Positions 2,511 to 22,416 are shown, counted from the first letter of the stretch. The stretch is DNA of 33,012 nt from Acidimicrobiia bacterium (GCA_041576165.1 JBFGLM010000049.1:1-33012), one strand, 5' to 3'. Notes: generated by a model not told the origin, from the letters alone. A program made the numbers and translations.

Positions 2511-3515
2511 ATGGCGGCGCGAATGGCCATCTACCTCCAGGACGCCCATCCCATCCGGCAAGGCATGGAGCTGGCGCGCTACGCCGAGGCCAGAGGCTTT
2601 GAGGCCGTCTGGCAAGCGGAGAGCCGGCTGGTAAGAGAAGCGACGGTGCCCATGGCCGCCTTCGCAGCGGTCACCGACCGGATCCTGGTGGGCTCGGGCG
2701 TGGTCAACAACTGGACCCGCAATCCGGCGCTGCTGGCCTCGACGTTCGCCACACTGGACGACTTGGCACCCGGCCGTATCCTGCTCGGGCTCGGCGCATG
2801 GTGGGATCCGCTGGCCGCCAAGGTTGGGATCGAGCGTCGCAAGCCGCTCAAAGCGATGCGGGAGACCGTGGAAGCAGTGCGGGCGCTGCTGGGCGATCAG
2901 CACGTGACCTACCACGGAGAGTTTGTCCACCTAGACGGGGTCGAACTGGATTATGTCCACCAGGAACGACGACCGAAAGACGTGCCTATCTACATTGGCG
3001 CCACGGGCATGCAGATGATGGCGCTGGCGGGCGCCATCGCCGATGGCGTTGTCCTCAACTATCTGGTCTCGCCCGACTACAACGACCGGGCTATGGAGAG
3101 CCTGGCGCGGGGGGCGGCCCGGACGGGGCGGGACGTCGACGACGTCGACCGGCCGCAGCTGATCGTTTGCTCGGTAGACGAGGCAGGGCACCACGGCCTC
3201 GACGCGGCACGGCTGCTGATCACCCAATACCTGGGACAACAGCCGCACCTGATGCAGGCCTCCGGTGTTCCACAGAGCCTGCTCGATGATGTTGGGCAGA
3301 TCATGACCTGGCCGGCGACCCACCAACAGGTAGCGGCCGCGTCGAAGCTGGTATCGGACGATATCGTGAGGATGATCACCGCCTCAGGCACAGTCGACGA
3401 GTGCCGGGCCAAAGTCGCCGAGTACATGGAGCACGGGTGTACGTCGCCGATTCTCTACCCGCTGGCGGAGGATCCCCGGGTGGTCATAGATGCCTTCGCC
3501 GGATGGAGCCCCTGA
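2511..3515 (+). CDS. LLM class flavin-dependent oxidoreductase (Mer-like, possibly F420-dependent)
   Basis: [50 protein letters not shown]...[16 protein letters not shown] precedes ATG 2511. Cofactor is inferred. Confidence 0.9.
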
Positions 3516-13312: not shown

Positions 13313-14080
13313 TCAGGCCGGGTCGCGTCGCCGACGCAGCCGGCCCAAAGCCTCCTCGACCGTCGGCAGCAACGCATCCGCCCAGGCCTCATGTCCGAGC
13401 GCAGATGCGTGAAACAGGTCGTCCGCAAACATGTGACGACCGCTGTTGAAGGCGGCGGTGGTCAGCCGCCACTGGTCGACCTTCGCCACGCGCCGGCGGG
13501 CGGCCACCCGGCGGTGGACATGGTCGGCTACGTGCCCGGCAAGCGAAGCGAGCTTGTTCAATGGGAACGGCAGCCGCGGGATCGAGCCGAGATCGCCGAC
13601 CCCGAACAGGATCACCTGGTCGGCGACCGAACCCAGGCCGGACACGATCGCATCGAGATTTCGAGCAAACCTCCACACCGGGACGAGGTGCAGAACGTCG
13701 TTGGAGCCCACCGAGAGGATGGCGATATCCCAGCTCGCGGCCTGGGCCCGTGACAGCTGACGTTCGAGCACGTCGGCTGATCGGGAGCCACCCTCGGCCA
13801 GACAGACCAGCTCCACACGGTATCGGTCCGCCAGCCGGGCGGCGATCAGGCGGGGCCAGCTCGCATCCGGATCGGCCAGCCCGGGAGCCGTCACCGTGCT
13901 GTCTCCCAGCAGGAGGATTCGCAGAGTTGGGAGCGCCCCGTCGCCGAATTCGCCCGATATGTCGAGCCCGGTGAGCGACGGCACGCCCCGGTTGCGAGCA
14001 TGCATCACCTCGCTGGCGATCGTCGCCGCCACCCCCATGAAGAAGAACTGACCGAACCTCACAAGCGGCCGGGCGTCCAT
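13313..14080 (-). CDS. SGNH/GDSL hydrolase family protein
   Basis: Blocks LLGDST, GGSRS, VGSND and DLFHAS (DxxH); N-terminal hydrophobic segment. Start uncertain. Confidence 0.88.
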   Translation of the reverse strand: MDARPLVRFGQFFFMGVAATIASEVMHARNRGVPSLTGLDISGEFGDGALPTLRILLLGDSTVTAPGLADPDASWPRLIAARLADRYRVELVCLAEGGSRSADVLERQLSRAQAASWDIAILSVGSNDVLHLVPVWRFARNLDAIVSGLGSVADQVILFGVGDLGSIPRLPFPLNKLASLAGHVADHVHRRVAARRRVAKVDQWRLTTAAFNSGRHMFADDLFHASALGHEAWADALLPTVEEALGRLRRRRDPA

Positions 14081-14200
14081 GCCTCGAGTAGCCACTCGCC
14101 GGAGCCGTGGGGACGGGCCTGTCTCGGATGTTTCGACGGGGTCAGCCGCCGGCTTGGCGCTAGATGCCCATCTGATATGTCGTGGCCGCATGTGACGGAG

Positions 14201-14842
14201 CTAGGTCGGTGGCTGGCTCAGGCGGCATTCGCCCAGAGAACGAATGACCATTGCCAGACCGCGCTCGAACTGGTCCGCAAGATCGCACGCAGCGATCTCC
14301 GCCGCCAGTCGGTCGACGTGCTGGAGGGAGGGCCCATCCGGCGCGGCGAGTTCCCGCCGCGCCGCTCCACGCCGACCCCGCTCCTGATAGACGTACCCCA
14401 TGACATGGGTCAGGAGAAGATGCCACGCTGTGTGTGTGAGTTCCGCGTGGAAGCCGCCAGCTCGCATCGTGCCGATGAACGCGTCATACACCTCGCGGCT
14501 GGGCCCTGCCCCGGGATTGGCAATGAGCAAATCGAAGAGGTTCGGATGGGTCAGAAACCCACGGCGGGCCGAGCGGGCCAGGCCCCGGTACCACTCCTCC
14601 CAGTCGGCGCCCTCGCGCACCGGCAGCTCGATCCGTTCGAAGAAGACTTCGAGCACCCCGTCGATCAACGCCTGTTTGCTCGACATGTGTTTGTAGAAGG
14701 CGGTGGCGTGCACGCCCAGCTCGTCGGCGAGTCGTCGCATTGACAGCCCCGCGGGCCCGTCGCGGTCGACGATCGCAAAGGCGGTCTCGGCGATCAGCTG
14801 CGGAGTCAGCCGGCCTCGAGCGATGTTGGTTGTGGAGTCCAT
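14201..14842 (-). CDS. TetR family transcriptional regulator (TetR_C type)
   Basis: GLSMRRLADELGVHATAFYKHMSSKQALID HTH; C-terminal FERGLAMVI. Confidence 0.92.
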   Translation of the reverse strand: MDSTTNIARGRLTPQLIAETAFAIVDRDGPAGLSMRRLADELGVHATAFYKHMSSKQALIDGVLEVFFERIELPVREGADWEEWYRGLARSARRGFLTHPNLFDLLIANPGAGPSREVYDAFIGTMRAGGFHAELTHTAWHLLLTHVMGYVYQERGRRGAARRELAAPDGPSLQHVDRLAAEIAACDLADQFERGLAMVIRSLGECRLSQPPT

Positions 14843-15342: not shown

Positions 15343-15578
15343 CTTTGCAGGGCGACCATGTCGATCGGCGGTCATTGCTCGAGGGCGGCGTCCTCCACCC
15401 GGGCACCCTCCGCCCGCCCGGGTAGATTGGCCGGCTCGTGTGGGGCTAGGGATTGCGTCAGCCATGTTGGCCCGTGGGCGCGCGGAGATCATGCCGCCGA
15501 GCATTCGCCGCCCACTCGACGTCGTCGACCGCTGGTGAGCAGGCCGGGCGCACCCGAGGGCACGCGCCGGTTCAACTG

Positions 15579-15926
15579 TCAAGTGGGACGGTTGAACCGG
15601 CGGCTCACCAACCACACGGCTCCGGCGATGACGAGCAGTGCCTGATTGAGGCTGAACGCCGGCTTCCACGACACCTTGCCGGCCCGGATCACATAGGCGC
15701 CGGCCGGCCGACCGACCACTCCTGCGCCCCCGCCCTCGCCGGAGCCGGAGGAGCGCGGGTCGGTCCCGCTGCCCCCGCCGCCGCCTGTGATGACGGTGAA
15801 CGCCGGGATGATGGTCGTTCCGTCGCGATCGATCGGGTCGCCGTACACCCGGGTCGTCGACACCAGGGACTGCAGCCGCTCGAGGATCCGACCGGAAACG
15901 TTCGCCGAATGGATTGCCTGGTTCAT
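15579..15926 (-). CDS. YtfJ/GerW-like small protein with C-terminal membrane anchor
   Basis: VYGDPIDRDGTTIIP...GGGGGSG...GEGGGAG...PAGAYVI...VSWKP pattern; AGGAGG before ATG 15926. Confidence 0.78.
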   Translation of the reverse strand: MNQAIHSANVSGRILERLQSLVSTTRVYGDPIDRDGTTIIPAFTVITGGGGGSGTDPRSSGSGEGGGAGVVGRPAGAYVIRAGKVSWKPAFSLNQALLVIAGAVWLVSRRFNRPT

Positions 15927-15988
15927 GGGTGCGCCTCCTTCATGCCGCCCTTCTCTCATCATGCCTGTTGCGGCCTTGCGGCGTGATC

Positions 15989-16024
15989 TGACAGAAAGCT
16001 GGCATAGTTGCTAGTTTTCTGTCA
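15989..16024. promoter_or_regulatory. Inverted repeat overlapping the probable promoter of the regulator-modABC operon
   Basis: TGACAGAAAGCTGGCA-TAGT-TGCTAGTTTTCTGTCA (14/16 match), ending just before ATG 16026. Confidence 0.7.
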
Positions 16025-16025
16025 A

Positions 16026-17030
16026 ATGTGGACAGGTCTACGGGAGCACCGGGAGGCGGCCGGTCTGACCCAGGCCGAACTGGCGGACCGGGCCGGCGTC
16101 AGCCGCCAGTTGGTCGGGGCAGCCGAAGCCGGCCGGAACCTGCCCCGGGTCGACGCCGCCCTGGCGCTCGCTGCAGCACTCGGAATATCCGTCGAGTCGC
16201 TGTTCGGGTCGGGCCCCGACCCGGTAGACGTCATCGGCGGCACTCCACCGCCGCACGGTTCGCTGGTGCGGATCGGCCGGGTCGGGGAGCGGATTGTCAC
16301 GGCTCCGGTTGGCCTTGGTCGCGAAGGCTGGGAGCCGCCGGATGCTGCGGTGGAGGACGGGACACTTCGTCACTTGCGGCGTCGCGGTCCGGGGTTGGTG
16401 GTTGCCGGCTGCGAGCCGGGACTCCAAGCGCTCGAACGGCTGTTGCGCGACGACGGGATGGGCGCGGTGGCAGCGGTTGCATCGAGTGCGGCTGCGGTAG
16501 AGGCGCTGCGCGGCGGCAGGGTTCACGCCGCCGTCGTCCACGGCCCGAGGCTGGCGGATAGGGGTTCGCCCGACTCGCTGGACATCGACCGGTTCCATCT
16601 GACGCGCTGGCAGGTGGGCCTCGCCGCGCCGGCCGAGGCGGAAGCCGGGTGGTGGGAAGCCGCCCTGTCGGGGCGAACGGCGGTGATCCAGCGGGAACCA
16701 GGAGCCGGGGTCCAGCAGGCATTCGAACGGGCGCTGGCCGCACGCGCGGGCTCGGTTATCGGTCCTCGGGTCCCGACGCACCTCGAGGCCACCACCCGGG
16801 CGGTCCTGACCGGTACCCCGGCGGTGACCATCGAGCCGGCCGCGTTGGCAATGGGTGCTGCGTTTCACGCGCTCGAGACACATGAGGCGCAGATCTGGAT
16901 CGCCCGCACCTGGACGCACGAGCGGCCGGTCACCGACGCAATGAACATCATCACGAGCCCCGTTTTTCAGCGCCGGTTGGCGGCGGTCGGAGGTTACGAC
17001 CTGTCCGGATCCGGGGCGCATGTGGGATGA
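16026..17030 (+). CDS. XRE-type HTH fused to a PBP-like substrate-binding domain; putative molybdate-responsive regulator
   Basis: GLTQAELADRAGVSRQLVGAAEAG HTH; QREPGAG and C-terminal VGGYDLS resemble PBP_like domains; ATGA overlap with modA. Confidence 0.8.
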   Translation: MWTGLREHREAAGLTQAELADRAGVSRQLVGAAEAGRNLPRVDAALALAAALGISVESLFGSGPDPVDVIGGTPPPHGSLVRIGRVGERIVTAPVGLGREGWEPPDAAVEDGTLRHLRRRGPGLVVAGCEPGLQALERLLRDDGMGAVAAVASSAAAVEALRGGRVHAAVVHGPRLADRGSPDSLDIDRFHLTRWQVGLAAPAEAEAGWWEAALSGRTAVIQREPGAGVQQAFERALAARAGSVIGPRVPTHLEATTRAVLTGTPAVTIEPAALAMGAAFHALETHEAQIWIARTWTHERPVTDAMNIITSPVFQRRLAAVGGYDLSGSGAHVG

Positions 17031-17779
17031 GGCGAGGCTCCGGAGCGATAGCCGTGCTGGCTTGCAGCTTGCTCATTGCGTGCGCTGCGGACCGGGGCGA
17101 CCAGGCACCTCGCCTCGTCTTGGTGTCGGCTGCGGCTTCCCTCACCGACGCATTCGGTGCTATCGAAGCGGCCTTCGAAGCCGCCACCCCCGGCGTCGAT
17201 GTCGCATTGAATCTCGGGGGCACGTCCGCATTGCGAGAGCAGGTGCTCGCCGGCGCCCCCGCCGATGTGTTCGCCGCAGCGGACCGATCTCATATGGACC
17301 GTCTGGTCGAGGCGGGTGAAGTGGCAACTGAGCCGGTCGTCTTTGCCCGCAATGTGCTGGAAATAGCGATTCCTGTTGGTAATCCGGCCGGGATCAAAGG
17401 TCTCGAGGACTTTGCCGAGCCTGCCCTGCTCATCGGGCTGTGCGCAGAGCCTGTCCCGTGTGGTGAGCTGGGACGGCGGGTGCTGGACAACGCTGGGGTG
17501 ACGCCCGCAGTCGACACCAACGAGCCGGACGTACGGGCGCTGCTCACGAAGATCGAGGCGGGCGAACTCGACGCCGGTCTCGTCTACGCGACCGACCTGA
17601 CCGGCGGCCGCGCTGTCGAAGGCATTGTGATTCCGCCAGACATCAACGCCATCGTCGAATACCCGATCGCTGTGCTGCGAGGGGCCGACGATGCGCAGGC
17701 TGCGGAGGCTTTTGTGAGCTTCGTGATGTCCGCGCCGGGACAGCGGATTCTCGCCGGCCACGGATTCTTGGCGCCGTGA
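17027..17779 (+). CDS. modA: Molybdate ABC transporter substrate-binding lipoprotein
   Basis: Lipobox LLIAC; SAAASLTDAF, GAPADVFAAA, FARN, VPCG, DAGLVYATD. Confidence 0.95.
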   Translation: MRRGSGAIAVLACSLLIACAADRGDQAPRLVLVSAAASLTDAFGAIEAAFEAATPGVDVALNLGGTSALREQVLAGAPADVFAAADRSHMDRLVEAGEVATEPVVFARNVLEIAIPVGNPAGIKGLEDFAEPALLIGLCAEPVPCGELGRRVLDNAGVTPAVDTNEPDVRALLTKIEAGELDAGLVYATDLTGGRAVEGIVIPPDINAIVEYPIAVLRGADDAQAAEAFVSFVMSAPGQRILAGHGFLAP

Positions 17780-18588
17780 CCGGGCGGCTTTCTCGCTCGC
17801 AGCGACGACGCGTGCGCCCGCCGCCGGGGGTGGCCGTCCTGGCGGCGCTGGGCCTGGCGATCTTCGTAGTGCCGCTGGCCGGATTGCTGGCGAAAACGCC
17901 GTGGTCACGCCTCTCCAGCCTGCTCACAGGGGACGTCGTCACCGAGGCGGTGCGGCTCTCGATCGCTACGTCGCTGGCCGCAACGGTGGTTTCTCTCGTC
18001 GTCGGCGTGCCGCTGGCGTGGGTGCTTGCCCGGGTCGATTTTCCCGGCCGGACGATCGTGCGATCGCTGGTACTGCTACCACTGGTGCTGCCCCCGGTGG
18101 TTGGAGGAGCGGCGCTGCTGTTTGCACTGGGCCGGCGCGGTTTGATCGGCGAGCCGCTCAACCGGGCCACCGGTCTCGTGCTGCCCTTCTCGACCTGGGG
18201 GGTGGTCATTGCGGCGACGTTTGTGGCGATGCCATTCCTGGTGATCACCGTGGAGGGAGCTCTCCGCAACCTCGATCTCCGCTACGAAGGAGCGGCGGCG
18301 ACGCTGGGGGCAGGTCGCTGGTCGATCATGTGGCGAGTCACACTCCCCATGATCGGGCCATCGTTGCTGTCCGGCATCGTACTGACCTGGGCGAGGGCGC
18401 TTGGGGAGTTCGGGGCCACGATCACCTTCGCCGGCAACCTGCAGGGACGCACGCAGACCCTGCCGCTCGCGGTCTTCGTGGCACTCGAGAGTGATCGCGA
18501 CACGGCGGTCTCCCTGAGTCTGCTCATGGTGGCGGTGTCCGTCGTAGTGCTGGTGTCACTCCGGGAGCGCTGGTGGAACTCGCTGTGA
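17776..18588 (+). CDS. modB: Molybdate ABC transporter permease
   Basis: LPLVLPPVVGG, FVAMPF, YEGAAATLGA (EAA loop), WARALGEFGATITFAGN; GTGA overlap. Confidence 0.95.
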   Translation: MTGRLSRSQRRRVRPPPGVAVLAALGLAIFVVPLAGLLAKTPWSRLSSLLTGDVVTEAVRLSIATSLAATVVSLVVGVPLAWVLARVDFPGRTIVRSLVLLPLVLPPVVGGAALLFALGRRGLIGEPLNRATGLVLPFSTWGVVIAATFVAMPFLVITVEGALRNLDLRYEGAAATLGAGRWSIMWRVTLPMIGPSLLSGIVLTWARALGEFGATITFAGNLQGRTQTLPLAVFVALESDRDTAVSLSLLMVAVSVVVLVSLRERWWNSL

Positions 18589-19652
18589 CGGCCGGGCTGC
18601 TCGAAGCCGAGCTGGGAGTGGACCGCGGCGACGGGTTTACCCTCGACATCTCTCTCACCATCGAACCCGGCCACACCGTCGCATTGCTGGGGCCCAACGG
18701 TGCCGGCAAATCAACGGCGGTGAGCGCCATTGCGGGACTGACGCCCCTCGACCGGGGCTACCTCCGGCTCGGGAATGTCACGCTGGACGACCCGGAACGG
18801 GGCCTTCTCATCCCGCCCGCCCGGCGACGAATCGGTGTCGCGTTCCAGGACCACATACTCTTTCCACACCTCACGGTCGCGCAGAACGTAGGGTTCGGTC
18901 TGAGTGGACGCCGGCAATCTCGCGAGCAACGGCGCCGGTCCGTGAGCGAGTGGCTGGAGAGACTCGGCATTGCCGACCTGGCCAACCGCAAGCCACGTGA
19001 CCTGTCGGGGGGCCAGGCGCAGCGGGTGGCTATGGCCAGGGCTCTCGTCACCGCGCCGGATGTCCTGTTGCTGGATGAGCCGCTCTCGGCGCTCGATGCC
19101 ACCACCCGGGTCACGCTGCGGCATGTGCTGGCCGACCATCTCGACGGATTTGGCGGCCCGCGGATGTTGATCACCCACGATCCGACTGAGGCGTTTCTGC
19201 TCGCGGACCGAATCCTGATCATCGAGGCCGGGCGGATCACCCAGTCCGGCACCGCCGACGACATCCGGATCCGCCCTCGCACTCGCTACGCAGCGGACCT
19301 CGCCGGGTCCAACCTGCTCGAGGGTACTGCAACTGGTGGGGGCAACATTGCGGTGGAGGGCCACACACTCCAGGCGGCGGACACCACAATCGCCGGGGAA
19401 GTTCTCGCCACCATCCATCCGCGCGCTATTTCGGTGCACCGGCGCCGGCCCGAGGGAAGTCCGCGCAACACCTGGGAGACGACCCTTGGCCGGGTGGAAC
19501 ACTATGGAGATCGGGTGCGGTTGCGGACCGGGCCACCGATGCCGCTGACGGCCGAGATAACGCCAGGCGCGGTGGAGGCACTCGGCCTGGCTAGCGGAGC
19601 GACGGTGTGGATATCAATCAAAGCAACTGAGATCAGCGTCGAGCCGGCCTGA
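18585..19652 (+). CDS. modC: Molybdate ABC transporter ATPase with C-terminal TOBE domain
   Basis: GPNGAGKST, LSGGQ, LLLDEP, ITHD; GSPRN and AEITP...LGL...WISIKATE; GTGA overlap gives start 18585. Confidence 0.92.
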   Translation: MTAGLLEAELGVDRGDGFTLDISLTIEPGHTVALLGPNGAGKSTAVSAIAGLTPLDRGYLRLGNVTLDDPERGLLIPPARRRIGVAFQDHILFPHLTVAQNVGFGLSGRRQSREQRRRSVSEWLERLGIADLANRKPRDLSGGQAQRVAMARALVTAPDVLLLDEPLSALDATTRVTLRHVLADHLDGFGGPRMLITHDPTEAFLLADRILIIEAGRITQSGTADDIRIRPRTRYAADLAGSNLLEGTATGGGNIAVEGHTLQAADTTIAGEVLATIHPRAISVHRRRPEGSPRNTWETTLGRVEHYGDRVRLRTGPPMPLTAEITPGAVEALGLASGATVWISIKATEISVEPA

Positions 19653-19694
19653 GCGCCCGACACCGACAAATCCCGGAAGCTTCCGGCCCCGGCG

Positions 19695-20717
19695 GTGGTT
19701 GGCGATGTCGTGAACCGGCTGATCAGAATTGCAGGGTTGATCGCGCTCGGTGCGTTGACCTTCTGGGCCTTTTCCGAACCGGACGCCCCGGTCAACCCGA
19801 CCGGCGTTCGGGTCGGTCCCGCCGACGCTTACAACCCCGTCACCGCCGGCGAGACACTTCCCGACGGATTCCGGCAACTCCTCCCCCGGGATGCCATCGC
19901 TCCTGTCTACGATCCTGCGTTCGTTCCCGCCGACGAGTCCGGCTGGCCCGGGCTGGTGGATGTCATCGGGGTTGCGGGCGGGAACGAGGCCAAGGCGTAC
20001 CCGGTGAGCTTTCTCAACCGGCGGGAGATGGTTCTCGACGAGATCGGAGGTGATCCGATCCTGGTCACCTGGTGACCGCTCTGTGCGACGGCGATGGTCC
20101 ATCGCCGTGAGGTCAACGGCCAGATTTTGGTACTCGGGAATCACGGCGCTTTGTGGGGCAACGCCATGACCTGGTGGGACCACAGCACCGGCTCGATCTG
20201 GAGTCAGCCGCTGGGCGAGGCCATCGCCGGCCCACTGAAGGGGGAGCGGCTCGATCTGTTGCCGGTCACGTTCACCACCTGGGACGCCTGGCGCACGGCC
20301 CATCCGCACACCCTGGCCCTGGACGCCCCGGCGGGAGACAGCGGATTCGACTTCAGGGACATGGCCATCGTGGTTGAGCTTGGCACGGAAGCGGCGGCAT
20401 ATCGCGTGCCGGATCTGCAACGGGTCGGGGTCGCAAACGATGTCGTAGCCGGCCTGGAGATCGCGGTAGCCGTCCACCCGAGGGATCCGCAACAGTGGAC
20501 GGTCTTCTCGCGGCGGCTCGAGAACGGTGTCGTCGAGCTGGCCGTGACCGATGGTGAGTTGGTCGACCTGGGCACGGGCACCGTGTGGGAGCCGACTCGA
20601 GGCCTAGGGCTGGACGGCCCGCTGGCCGGCCAGGTTCTCGGCACTCTGCCTGCGTTCACCGCGTTTCCGGGTGACTTCGACACCTTCTGGCCGGATGGCC
20701 GGGTGTGGCAGCCATGA
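19695..20717 (+). CDS. DUF3179 family selenoprotein (UxxC; in-frame TGA 20073-20075 read as Sec), N-terminal membrane anchor or signal
   Basis: The two ORF-track pieces share a frame and join as ILVTW-TGA-PLCATAMVHRR, matching the DUF3179 VTYCPLC motif as I recall it. DAIAP..DPAF, KAYP, WDHSTGSIWSQ..GEAIAGPL.G and TW..W...HP are intact. 340 aa from 19695; alternative GTG start at 19710. Confidence 0.9.
20088..20108 (+). promoter_or_regulatory. Bacterial SECIS element (in-coding stem-loop)
   Basis: ACGGCGATG-GTC-CATCGCCGT, a perfect 9-bp stem starting 12 nt after the TGA, with GU at the start of the apical loop. Confidence 0.85.
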
Positions 20718-21250
20718 CCCCGGTGGCCCGGCTGTTGCGGCTCGATCGTCGCACCTGGCAGGGCCTGGGCGCTACCGGCACTATCACGGCCGGATCGCTG
20801 GCGACGCTGGGTGCGTTTGCCGTGTTCGCTTTTGATCGGTTCGGCATCCAGGCTCTCGTCGCCCCCCGCCCGACCCTCCGCCTGCTTCTCACCGGCTTCT
20901 ACGGGTGGGTGTGGCTGGCGGGGACTGTGTGGATTGCGGCCCGCTTCGCACTGGCTTCTGCCGCCCGGTTCGACCGCGTCTTGCGGCTGTTCGGCTACGC
21001 CCATCTGCCGTTGCTGGCGGTGGCATTGACGATTCAGGTGACGTCGGTGACGCTGCGCTGGAACGGGCCCGGGCTGGTGTTCGGCTGGTTCACGGTGTCG
21101 TTCTGGATGCCGGCCCTGCTCGTTGCAGCCACCCGCCAGACGGTTGGCATCGATACATCCCTCGCTGTTCTGATCGTTGCCGGGCCATACGTTGGGTGGC
21201 TGCTGGTGATCGGCCGCACCCTCGCCTCCCAGCTGGGACATCTTCTCTGA
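20714..21250 (+). CDS. Multi-TM membrane protein, Yip1-like
   Basis: About 5 hydrophobic segments; FDRVLRLFGYAHLPL resembles bacterial Yip1-like proteins; ATGA overlap with the DUF3179 stop. Confidence 0.65.
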   Translation: MTPVARLLRLDRRTWQGLGATGTITAGSLATLGAFAVFAFDRFGIQALVAPRPTLRLLLTGFYGWVWLAGTVWIAARFALASAARFDRVLRLFGYAHLPLLAVALTIQVTSVTLRWNGPGLVFGWFTVSFWMPALLVAATRQTVGIDTSLAVLIVAGPYVGWLLVIGRTLASQLGHLL

Positions 21251-21262
21251 GCGGGCCGGCGT

Positions 21263-22069
21263 TCAGGCGTCTAGCGCCCGCATCCGGTGCCGCTCTGCCG
21301 CCGTGTAGGCCCGCCGCATGGTCGGCATGAGGGCGCCGTCAACGACGGTGAGGATCGTTCCAACGAGTGCCAGTGGATACCAGACGTGGCGGGGCTGGCC
21401 GGTCGTGAACGCCACGGCTCCCGCAATCAGCGCGGCGATGCCTATCGCTAGGCCAACCGCCAGGAGACTCTCGACCAGCTTCCGCTGCTGCCGCCGGCCA
21501 CCGAAGATGCCGATCGCCGCGCCCGACAGACCGGCGAGGACGCCGATGAAACCGCCGATGAGTGCAGCCTGGTTCTCGGACCACCAGGCCGACTGGCCGC
21601 CAAGGCCCTCGAGCGTCAACGGACCGACCCACACTTGGCCGCCTTCCGGCATCACCACGTTGATCTCGACTCGGTCGGGTCCCGGCGCGCCGTTCAAGAA
21701 GAACGGCAGTTCGAATTGGCGACCGTCTGAGTCAGCGACCAGAGCCGCCATCGGACCGGCTTCGGCCAGCGTGCGAGAGAAATACGCTCCGCCGTCGGCG
21801 AAATAGCTCCACATCTCCAGATAACCGGCGCCCCCCACGCCTTCGTGGCGGACGGTGCCGCGCACGACGTAGCTATCCGACTCGGTCTCGGGCTCATGGA
21901 TGGTGATGAGACGGTGGGTCCCCGTACCAGTGACGTACACCTCCTCGCCCACGACTTCACCCGTGGTCGGGGGGTTGGCGGTCCAGTCCACCTGTTCGGC
22001 CGCCAGGGCGGCCGTGGCCGACCCGGCAAATGCCAGGGCGATCAGGCAACTAAGCAGTACGGTTCGCAC
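21263..22069 (-). CDS. Hypothetical protein: signal peptide, extracytoplasmic beta-rich domain, 3 C-terminal TM
   Basis: GTG 22069 with GAGGAG upstream (alternative ATG 22084); signal ends ALA; YLEMWSYFADGGAYFSRTL core. Confidence 0.75.
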   Translation of the reverse strand: MRTVLLSCLIALAFAGSATAALAAEQVDWTANPPTTGEVVGEEVYVTGTGTHRLITIHEPETESDSYVVRGTVRHEGVGGAGYLEMWSYFADGGAYFSRTLAEAGPMAALVADSDGRQFELPFFLNGAPGPDRVEINVVMPEGGQVWVGPLTLEGLGGQSAWWSENQAALIGGFIGVLAGLSGAAIGIFGGRRQQRKLVESLLAVGLAIGIAALIAGAVAFTTGQPRHVWYPLALVGTILTVVDGALMPTMRRAYTAAERHRMRALDA

Positions 22070-22355
22070 GGGCGGTCTCCTCATCTCGGTAGGCGTCGAG
22101 CAGCAGCCGGAAGGCCTCGTCGTCCATCCGTCCTTCGGCGTAGAGCGAGCGCAGCGCCGTCTCAAACGGTCCGCCGGTGACCTGGGCATCGATGACCTTG
22201 ACCTTGTCGATCAGCCGGTCGAGACGCAGTCGCACGGTGGGATACGAGATGCCGTATTCGGCGGCGAGGTCTTTGAGCGTCCCCGACGCCAGCAAGAACC
22301 GCTTCAGGAATCCGAGGTCTTCATCGGATAGGTAATCGGTCCATCGCTGCTGCAT
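22050..22355 (-). CDS. DUF2089 family HTH protein
   Basis: LSDEDLGFLKRFLLASGTLKDLAAEYGISYPTVRLRLDRLI signature; alternative start 22367. Confidence 0.85.
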   Translation of the reverse strand: MQQRWTDYLSDEDLGFLKRFLLASGTLKDLAAEYGISYPTVRLRLDRLIDKVKVIDAQVTGGPFETALRSLYAEGRMDDEAFRLLLDAYRDEETARANRTA

Positions 22356-22384
22356 GTGAATCCCCATCGACCCTGAGTTTAATA

Positions 22385-22416
22385 ATCTTGAGATATATCT
22401 TTAGATTTCTCAAGAC
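22385..22416. promoter_or_regulatory. AT-rich tandem palindromes upstream of the DUF2089 gene
   Basis: ATCTTGAGAT (22385), ATCTTTAGAT (22397) and TTCTCAAGAC (22407). Confidence 0.6.

Follow-up and report, generated by a model that had tools for sequence, protein, structure and literature searches.

The analysed sequence carries a DUF3179 gene whose internal UGA is very probably read as selenocysteine (Sec), in which case the locus holds one intact gene, a Sec-containing member of the DUF3179 family. In the window, i.e. the whole 33,012-nt stretch analysed, the reading frame runs from GTG 19695 to the TGA at 20715-20717, and is interrupted solely by the TGA at 20073-20075. Residues around the internal TGA are PILVTW-U-PLCATAMVHRR, and translation of the frame revealed neither frameshifts nor further stops between 19695 and 20717. 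GTG 19695 is the longest start choice, GTG 19710 an in-frame alternative. A mechanical listing of ORFs yields two pieces, 19695-20075 (126 aa) and 20094-20717 (207 aa). The Pfam DUF3179 profile (PF11376) matches the read-through protein with E 1.7e-49 and 169.3 bits, the gathering cut-off being 27, and matches also each half taken alone, on the consecutive profile positions 1-64 and 72-153; at E <= 0.01 the read-through protein has no NCBIfam match. An earlier note on this DNA had described the two ORFs as one frame broken by a TGA with no frameshift, carrying intact family motifs on both sides, and had predicted that standard callers would split the gene; translation, the separate profile matches and the ORF listing agree with it on each point. 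Elsewhere TGA is a stop, as it terminates both the DUF3179 gene itself and the upstream ABC ATPase gene. The features discussed are collected in Table 1.

Table 1. Coordinates of the DUF3179 gene, of the elements recognized or predicted within it, of its neighbours, and of its paralogues in the same assembly (G000).
Feature	Position	Strand	Details
Sec-containing DUF3179 gene (very probable)	19695..20717	+	340 codons plus TGA stop; PF11376 on read-through
UGA, very probable Sec codon	20073..20075	+	residue 127, position 1 of U-P-L-C; column conservation, Cys homologues, contigs
Candidate SECIS-type hairpin	20088..20108	+	9-bp stem A20088-U20108, loop G-U-C 20097-20099
Predicted N-terminal hydrophobic helix	19698..19772	+	residues 2-26; DSSP helix of the model; homologues also start hydrophobic
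First predicted Rieske-like beta domain	19980..20282	+	residues ~96-196; carries U127, C130, H136, D162-H163
Second predicted Rieske-like beta domain	20370..20699	+	residues ~226-335; degenerate repeat, without Cys or Sec
HTH_3 + PBP_like regulator	16008-17030	+	
modA	17027-17779	+	TIGR01256, 121 bits, above cut-off
modB	17776-18588	+	TIGR02141, 223 bits, above cut-off
ABC ATPase with TOBE domain	18573-19652	+	
Multi-pass membrane protein, 178 aa	20714..21250	+	ATGA overlap with the DUF3179 stop
Further Sec-type DUF3179 gene (L062)	G000:C1:208589-209608		TGA and hairpin
Further Sec-type DUF3179 gene (L063)	G000:C110:2339-3364		TGA and hairpin

The interrupting codon is shared by most close relatives. 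Six-frame searches, with stops counted, were extended to 151 genomes of the same order, which belongs to Actinomycetota, the relatives being named Acidimicrobiia or Ilumatobacteraceae. Close matches (E <= 2e-82) number 42, of which 39 contain an in-frame TGA and three do not; none of the distant paralogue matches listed (E > 1e-40) in the 151 genomes has an in-frame stop. Sec-type copies reside in at least 31 genomes, distributed over 11 of 12 family codes (the window's own bin and 10 other families). At the W-U-P-L-C column the aligned codon is TGA in 29/30 loci, the window's own included, and TGC in L057 (without L037, whose row was taken from genome G004, the count of TGA is 28/29). Both protein halves are 50-66% identical among the TGA-bearing loci. 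A protein database search identified 1042 relatives, and the TGA column corresponds to an invariant Cys within W-C-P-x-C in all of the 25 full-length homologues aligned with the query. Family members carry here the CPLC named in the earlier note, and the TGA falls on the first Cys of a conserved CxxC in both the homologues and the loci of the order. Judged from these alignments, the conservation of the TGA column is far beyond chance.

The data bear directly on the hypothesis that the locus is a pseudogene, in which a nonsense mutation (TGC or TGG into TGA) hit a Cys-type gene and left two decaying ORFs. ORF calling does split the gene, and Cys-type relatives do exist. Yet decay is hard to reconcile with a TGA kept at the same column across nearly all the family codes, flanked by halves conserved to the extent reported above, in a frame free of frameshifts and of additional stops. 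Moreover, the arms of the hairpin located downstream of the codon are devoid of synonymous changes, and three such copies, belonging to three different subclades, are found in the same assembly. The pseudogene hypothesis must be regarded as very unlikely.

Sec and Cys forms interleave in a rapidly built maximum-likelihood tree with 70 rows (three distant paralogues as outgroup, L037 excluded); parsimony requires 10 changes, and 3-4 are imposed by starred branches. Interleaving of this kind is the usual pattern of selenoprotein families. The three Sec-type copies of the window's assembly (on contigs C49, C1 and C110), each accompanied by the hairpin, fall in the three subclades just mentioned. 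The same assembly hosts four distant Cys-type DUF3179 genes as well, with an open frame of ~450-500 aa (L022-L025, on C2, C1, C2 and C22, respectively). Cys and Sec DUF3179 paralogues occur in tandem at the locus L060 (G023:C19:79500-85000), where they reside on the minus strand at locus positions 3440 and 2288, respectively. In this pair the hairpin persists in the Cys form, where one of its pairs has become a wobble, a hint at a recent replacement of Sec by Cys.

The putative SECIS-type hairpin starts 12 nt past the UGA, and is embedded in the codons T-A-M-V-H-R-R. Its folding energy, taken alone, is weak evidence (MFE -24.3 kcal/mol, z -2.0, 6/200 shuffles equally good), and an Rfam scan of the region 19950-20250 at E <= 10 retrieved a chance lncRNA match but no SECIS family. 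Comparative data are more informative on the element. The hairpin was found in 29/29 Sec forms; the arms are identical in 27 of them, and one non-synonymous mismatch each marks the other two. The codons at positions +5 (ACG, 29/29), +6 (GCG, 29/29), +9 (CAT, 29/29) and +10 (CGC, 28/28), which make up both arms, feature no synonymous change, and every other degenerate codon from -25 to +45 specifying an invariant amino acid varies among the Sec forms. As an example, the His at +36 is encoded by CAC in 24 and by CAT in 5 loci. The Val codon in the loop varies at the third base too (GTC 25, GTT 3, GTG 1). In each of the three Cys forms for which DNA is available one or more of the four arm codons deviate from the Sec forms: three codons are changed in L057, L061 departs at the amino acid level, and a single change in L060:3440 converts a G-C into a G-U pair. 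The hairpin is degraded in two of the three Cys forms, and weakened by a single G-U pair in the third. Since the stem hardly varies, compensatory changes or covariation do not occur in it. A constraint acting at the RNA level, and limited to Sec forms, is precisely what one expects of a SECIS. Invariance of the nucleotides of the hairpin over 11 of the 12 family codes makes the element a clean case of RNA constraint overlapping a coding sequence, and the invariant hairpin could act as a search key for additional copies.

The summed contig depth at 20051-20214, and only there, leaps from ~5-14 to ~30-240 in all four metagenome runs. This interval is matched by many short contigs of other organisms at identity >= 90%, and the jump is ascribed to the extreme nucleotide conservation of the regions encoding the UGA-hairpin and the W-W-D-H-x-T-G-S motif.

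In the decoding model proposed, SelB-GTP-Sec-tRNA(Sec) would bind the hairpin and deliver Sec to the UGA, and the ribosome would make a protein of 340 residues instead of a fragment of 126. Termination competes with Sec insertion, and some truncated product is likely. One may go further, and hypothesize that two products are made from the locus, a 126-aa anchored fragment and a 207-aa protein translated separately from ATG 20094. The ATG is found only 18 nt past the TGA, and gene callers annotate the 207-aa form in no fewer than 69 public clusters. However, ATG 20094 is a Met codon lying inside the conserved hairpin, and the 18 nt separating it from the TGA encode, in frame, the invariant P-L-C. 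Moreover, because the first predicted Rieske-like domain runs across the TGA, neither piece would correspond to a whole domain. Synthesis of two separate products is thus very unlikely, if marginally less so than gene decay, and read-through of the UGA as Sec is the interpretation followed below.

The assembly which includes the window (5.1 Mb in 161 contigs, 96.5% complete, 7.5% contamination) encodes the Sec machinery. Two selA and two selB genes form adjacent pairs on contigs C24 and C100, and two genes for tRNA-Sec with anticodon UCA were identified (79.9 and 72.9 bits). The single selD (G000:C1:171385-172317; L011) has an in-frame TGA within the motif G-A-G-U-A-C-K near the N-terminus, and is, to judge from this motif, itself a selenoprotein gene. 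The four genes selA, selB, selC and selD, for which the earlier note had recommended a search, are all there. The selA gene was found in 137 of the 151 genomes of the order. Of the 31 genomes hosting a Sec-type copy, 29 gave a selA match at E <= 1e-60, the exceptions being G012 and G067 (98% and 56% complete, respectively). Being selA nearly universal in the order, its co-occurrence with Sec-type DUF3179 genes (29/31 versus 137/151) says little.

The bin may be composite. At 5.1 Mb it exceeds every relative searched (~1.4-4.2 Mb), and no other genome searched encodes two full-length selA genes. Sec-type DUF3179 genes are missing from all 18 other members of the family to which the bin is assigned. 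In turn, the RsgA encoded on the window's contig (23336-24364) had no counterpart (E <= 1e-50) in the five genomes of the assigned family that were searched, the best match (63%) occurring in another family. Contigs C24, C100, C1 and C145 are involved in signs concerning the composition of the bin. As C49, the contig of the window, possibly belongs to a composite bin, its link to the Sec genes rests on binning and on the near-ubiquity of selA. The Sec trait is nonetheless the rule in the order, whichever the lineage of C49.

A one-base error introduced by sequencing or assembly finds no support in the data, and is the least credible of the explanations considered. In public contigs from four runs, each belonging to a different study, no alternative letter reaches a share of 10% at 20073-20075, and 28 other genomes share the codon. 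The site is spanned, with 0 differences, by a record of 2941 nt (X1), perhaps from the source sample, and by a record of 419 nt from a second study (X5), in which four differences are found, all elsewhere. The TGA, a re-check of which had been advised, is unchanged in these contigs. The sequence occurs in marine samples, and none of the public runs listed for it is an RNA run. On the whole, decay of the gene, its split into two products and sequencing error are all very unlikely.

Structural predictions provide hints on the function of the protein. An AlphaFold2 model (26 sequences, pLDDT 93) features a helix at residues 2-26, a short linker of low confidence, and an almost all-beta body. The helix is read as a putative signal anchor or signal peptide, and as it contains no Cys it is not a lipobox; the suggestion that the protein is membrane-anchored or exported is compatible with this prediction. 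The N-terminal domain was folded also alone (29 sequences, pLDDT 91.6; model residues 35-135 correspond to residues 96-196 of the protein). The best structural matches were 3c0d_A (Z 8.5, 95 residues aligned) and 2qpz_A (Z 8.1, 92 aligned) for this domain, and 1vm9_A (Z 8.4, rmsd 2.9, 91 aligned) and 5cxm_A (Z 8.3) for residues 226-335, all Z values being near 8, a level often reached by models that lack a clear counterpart, with Foldseek E values only ~0.04-0.2. By title, ~43 of the first 44 structural matches of the N-terminal domain are Rieske-type proteins, and proteins of this type also head the matches of the second domain. The second half matches positions 25-146 of the DUF3179 profile (E 5.5e-7), as the first half does. 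Since both halves model as Rieske-like, and the second is a weak repeat of the first, DUF3179 would appear to consist of two Rieske-like domains in tandem. The resemblance is, according to the models, a likeness of fold only, and not membership. Foldseek found nothing in the PDB at E <= 0.001, a PDB sequence search with the profile of the N-terminal domain gave 0 matches at E <= 10, and the Rieske Pfam (PF00355) has no match even at E <= 10. Searching a protein atlas with a natural Cys-form homologue, no usable match was obtained outside PF11376. No thioredoxin-fold entry is found among the structural matches listed.

U127 and C130 are the only Sec/Cys residues, hence the only selenol/thiol pair, of the protein. 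In the model of the N-terminal domain U-P-L-C sits at the turn between the predicted strands 59-66 and 71-76, and D-H follows strand 98-101 (model numbering). Residues H136, R138, D162, H163, S167 and W169-S-Q-P are invariant in the Sec-type clade. Across six distant Cys-type DUF3179 proteins, the invariant functional positions include C127, C130, E111, D115, D162 and S167; these proteins have lost H136 and H163, mostly replaced by F or Y and by R, D or L, respectively.

According to the functional model, the N-terminal helix would anchor or export the protein, and because of this the two Rieske-like domains would face outward; U127 and C130 would cycle between a selenenylsulfide and a reduced form, acting on an extracytoplasmic substrate. 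Extracytoplasmic selenol/thiol redox chemistry at U127/C130 is our best guess at the function, with even chances of being correct. The main rival hypothesis accepts the same Sec gene, and postulates that U127, C130, and perhaps H136 and D162/H163, serve as ligands of a metal ion, a metalloid or a cluster, at the site where Rieske proteins hold the [2Fe-2S] centre. The product would be an extracytoplasmic metal-handling protein, or an electron carrier, and not a thiol/selenol oxidoreductase. As the predicted fold seems Rieske-like rather than thioredoxin-like, there is room for a metal-binding role. Both domains model as Rieske-like, with the Z values given above; U-P-L-C lies at a strand turn and D-H after a strand, H136 and H163 are invariant within the Sec-type clade, and genes of a molybdate-type transporter lie 42 nt upstream on the same strand. 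This hypothesis is weakened by the lack of CxH...CxxH motifs and of any match to the Rieske Pfam, by the loss of both His residues in the six distant Cys-type proteins aligned, by the mod neighbourhood, which is not conserved, and by the family motif UxxC/T reported in the reviews cited below, according to which some members can do without the second Cys. We consider a metal-binding role unlikely, and redox chemistry at the selenol/thiol pair the better candidate.

The DUF3179 gene is preceded, at a distance of 42 nt and on the same strand, by the genes of a molybdate-type ABC transporter operon. The gap contains, at 19673-19686, a 14-nt sequence that is perfectly palindromic, CCGGAAGCTTCCGG, and is not followed by a T-run. 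Neither modA nor modB resides near the DUF3179 gene in any of the 33 other loci, and a single ABC ATPase, 37% identical, was detected among them, in L060. Scanning the interval 15800-22400, no promoter-like site was found; the three terminator-like sites detected are no more than those in shuffled sequences, and none lies between the ATPase and DUF3179 genes. Downstream, the ATG of the membrane protein gene overlaps the DUF3179 stop, which makes its product a possible partner. In the six closest of the 33 other loci (L031-L036) the DUF3179 gene is immediately followed by a homologue of the membrane protein gene (44-49% identity). The membrane protein has no Pfam or NCBIfam match, and its resemblance to Yip1 (score 0.92) is a lead only. 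Pfam analysis of 83 flanking ORFs from 28 loci, L030 and L037 being left out, identified HSP20, RimK, MFS, one Redoxin, one molybdopterin oxidoreductase and two further DUF3179 genes; a consistent redox partner did not emerge from this set.

Three GC3-rich ORFs of the window, 21263-22189 (-), 14000-14743 (+) and 15453-15986 (+), have no Pfam or NCBIfam family; one of the three encodes 308 aa and is convergent with the membrane protein gene. Four other TGAs are flanked by GC3-rich frames on both sides, at 13758 on the plus strand and at 18713, 7415 and 7939 on the minus strand; at least those at 13758 and 18713 lie opposite to lipase and ABC ATPase genes.

An extreme form of the metal-binding hypothesis joins the protein to its neighbours. 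Sec-type DUF3179 proteins would be Rieske-fold-derived metalloproteins exposed on the outer face of the membrane, in which a metal, a metalloid or a small cluster would be coordinated by Sec127 and Cys130 together with His136 and His163, both specific to the clade; in this genome the protein would work with the upstream molybdate-type ABC importer and the downstream Yip1-like membrane protein. We deem this improbable, more so than metal binding as such. If it were true, a selenium-ligated centre would exist outside of the cytoplasm.

DUF3179 selenoproteins had been recognized before, as the earlier note indicated. The family is listed, with the motif UxxC/T, in the selenoprotein tables of PMC9312934 and PMC13188914, which credit it to Zhang & Gladyshev 2007 (PMC1976440), an article with families named 'OS_HP', in whose Table 2 and consulted passages the name DUF3179 does not occur. 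A further publication simply includes a DUF3179 protein in one of its tables. NCBI denotes relatives from Acidimicrobiia and Ilumatobacteraceae as 'DUF3179 domain-containing (seleno)protein', and the closest named relative, 59% identical, comes from an Ilumatobacteraceae MAG (P0007). The gene is a further member of a catalogued selenoprotein family, the class is not new, and existing knowledge of selenoproteins is left unchanged by our findings. The case is instructive as concerns annotation. Among the 120 best protein clusters, 71 have a length of 195-215 aa, and 69 of these start with MVHRR, i.e. correspond to the half which follows the TGA. This gene, and at least 69 similar public clusters, have been deposited as 207-aa fragments. 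Because post-TGA fragments are deposited as genes, the selenoproteomes of Acidimicrobiia are under-counted. Together with the invariant polar residues, the predicted tandem of Rieske-like domains and the one U-x-x-C pair may provide a concrete starting point for the biochemistry of DUF3179 proteins.

Three known systems can be compared with the locus described here. In both halves the predicted fold resembles that of Rieske [2Fe-2S] proteins such as 2qpz, 1vm9, 5cxm and 3gce, as well as of 3c0d, a cluster-less NirD-like small subunit; the alignments (Z 8.1-8.5, rmsd 2.6-3.8 A, 90-95 residues) are to be read within the limits on Z stated above. Clusters of Rieske proteins are held by the motifs CxH and CxxH. 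In contrast, these are absent from the DUF3179 protein, and U-P-L-C and D-H are found in their place. At the RNA level, bacterial SECIS elements are stem-loops located ~11-13 nt past the UGA, with G and U in the apical loop, and the stem of the SECIS of E. coli fdhF carries a bulged U. The hairpin is similar to elements of the fdhF type in the spacing of the stem-loop after the UGA and in the presence of G and U in the loop, but differs because the stem is perfect, with no bulged U, and the loop measures 3-5 nt; binding to SelB is putative. The likeness is closest to known Sec-containing DUF3179 proteins, with which the protein shares the Pfam family, a Sec residue predicted at the first position of U-x-x-C, the existence of Cys homologues, and a candidate SECIS hairpin just downstream of the codon. 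There is no difference of kind with respect to them, and the locus adds to the family an Acidimicrobiia-type bin with three Sec-type paralogues.
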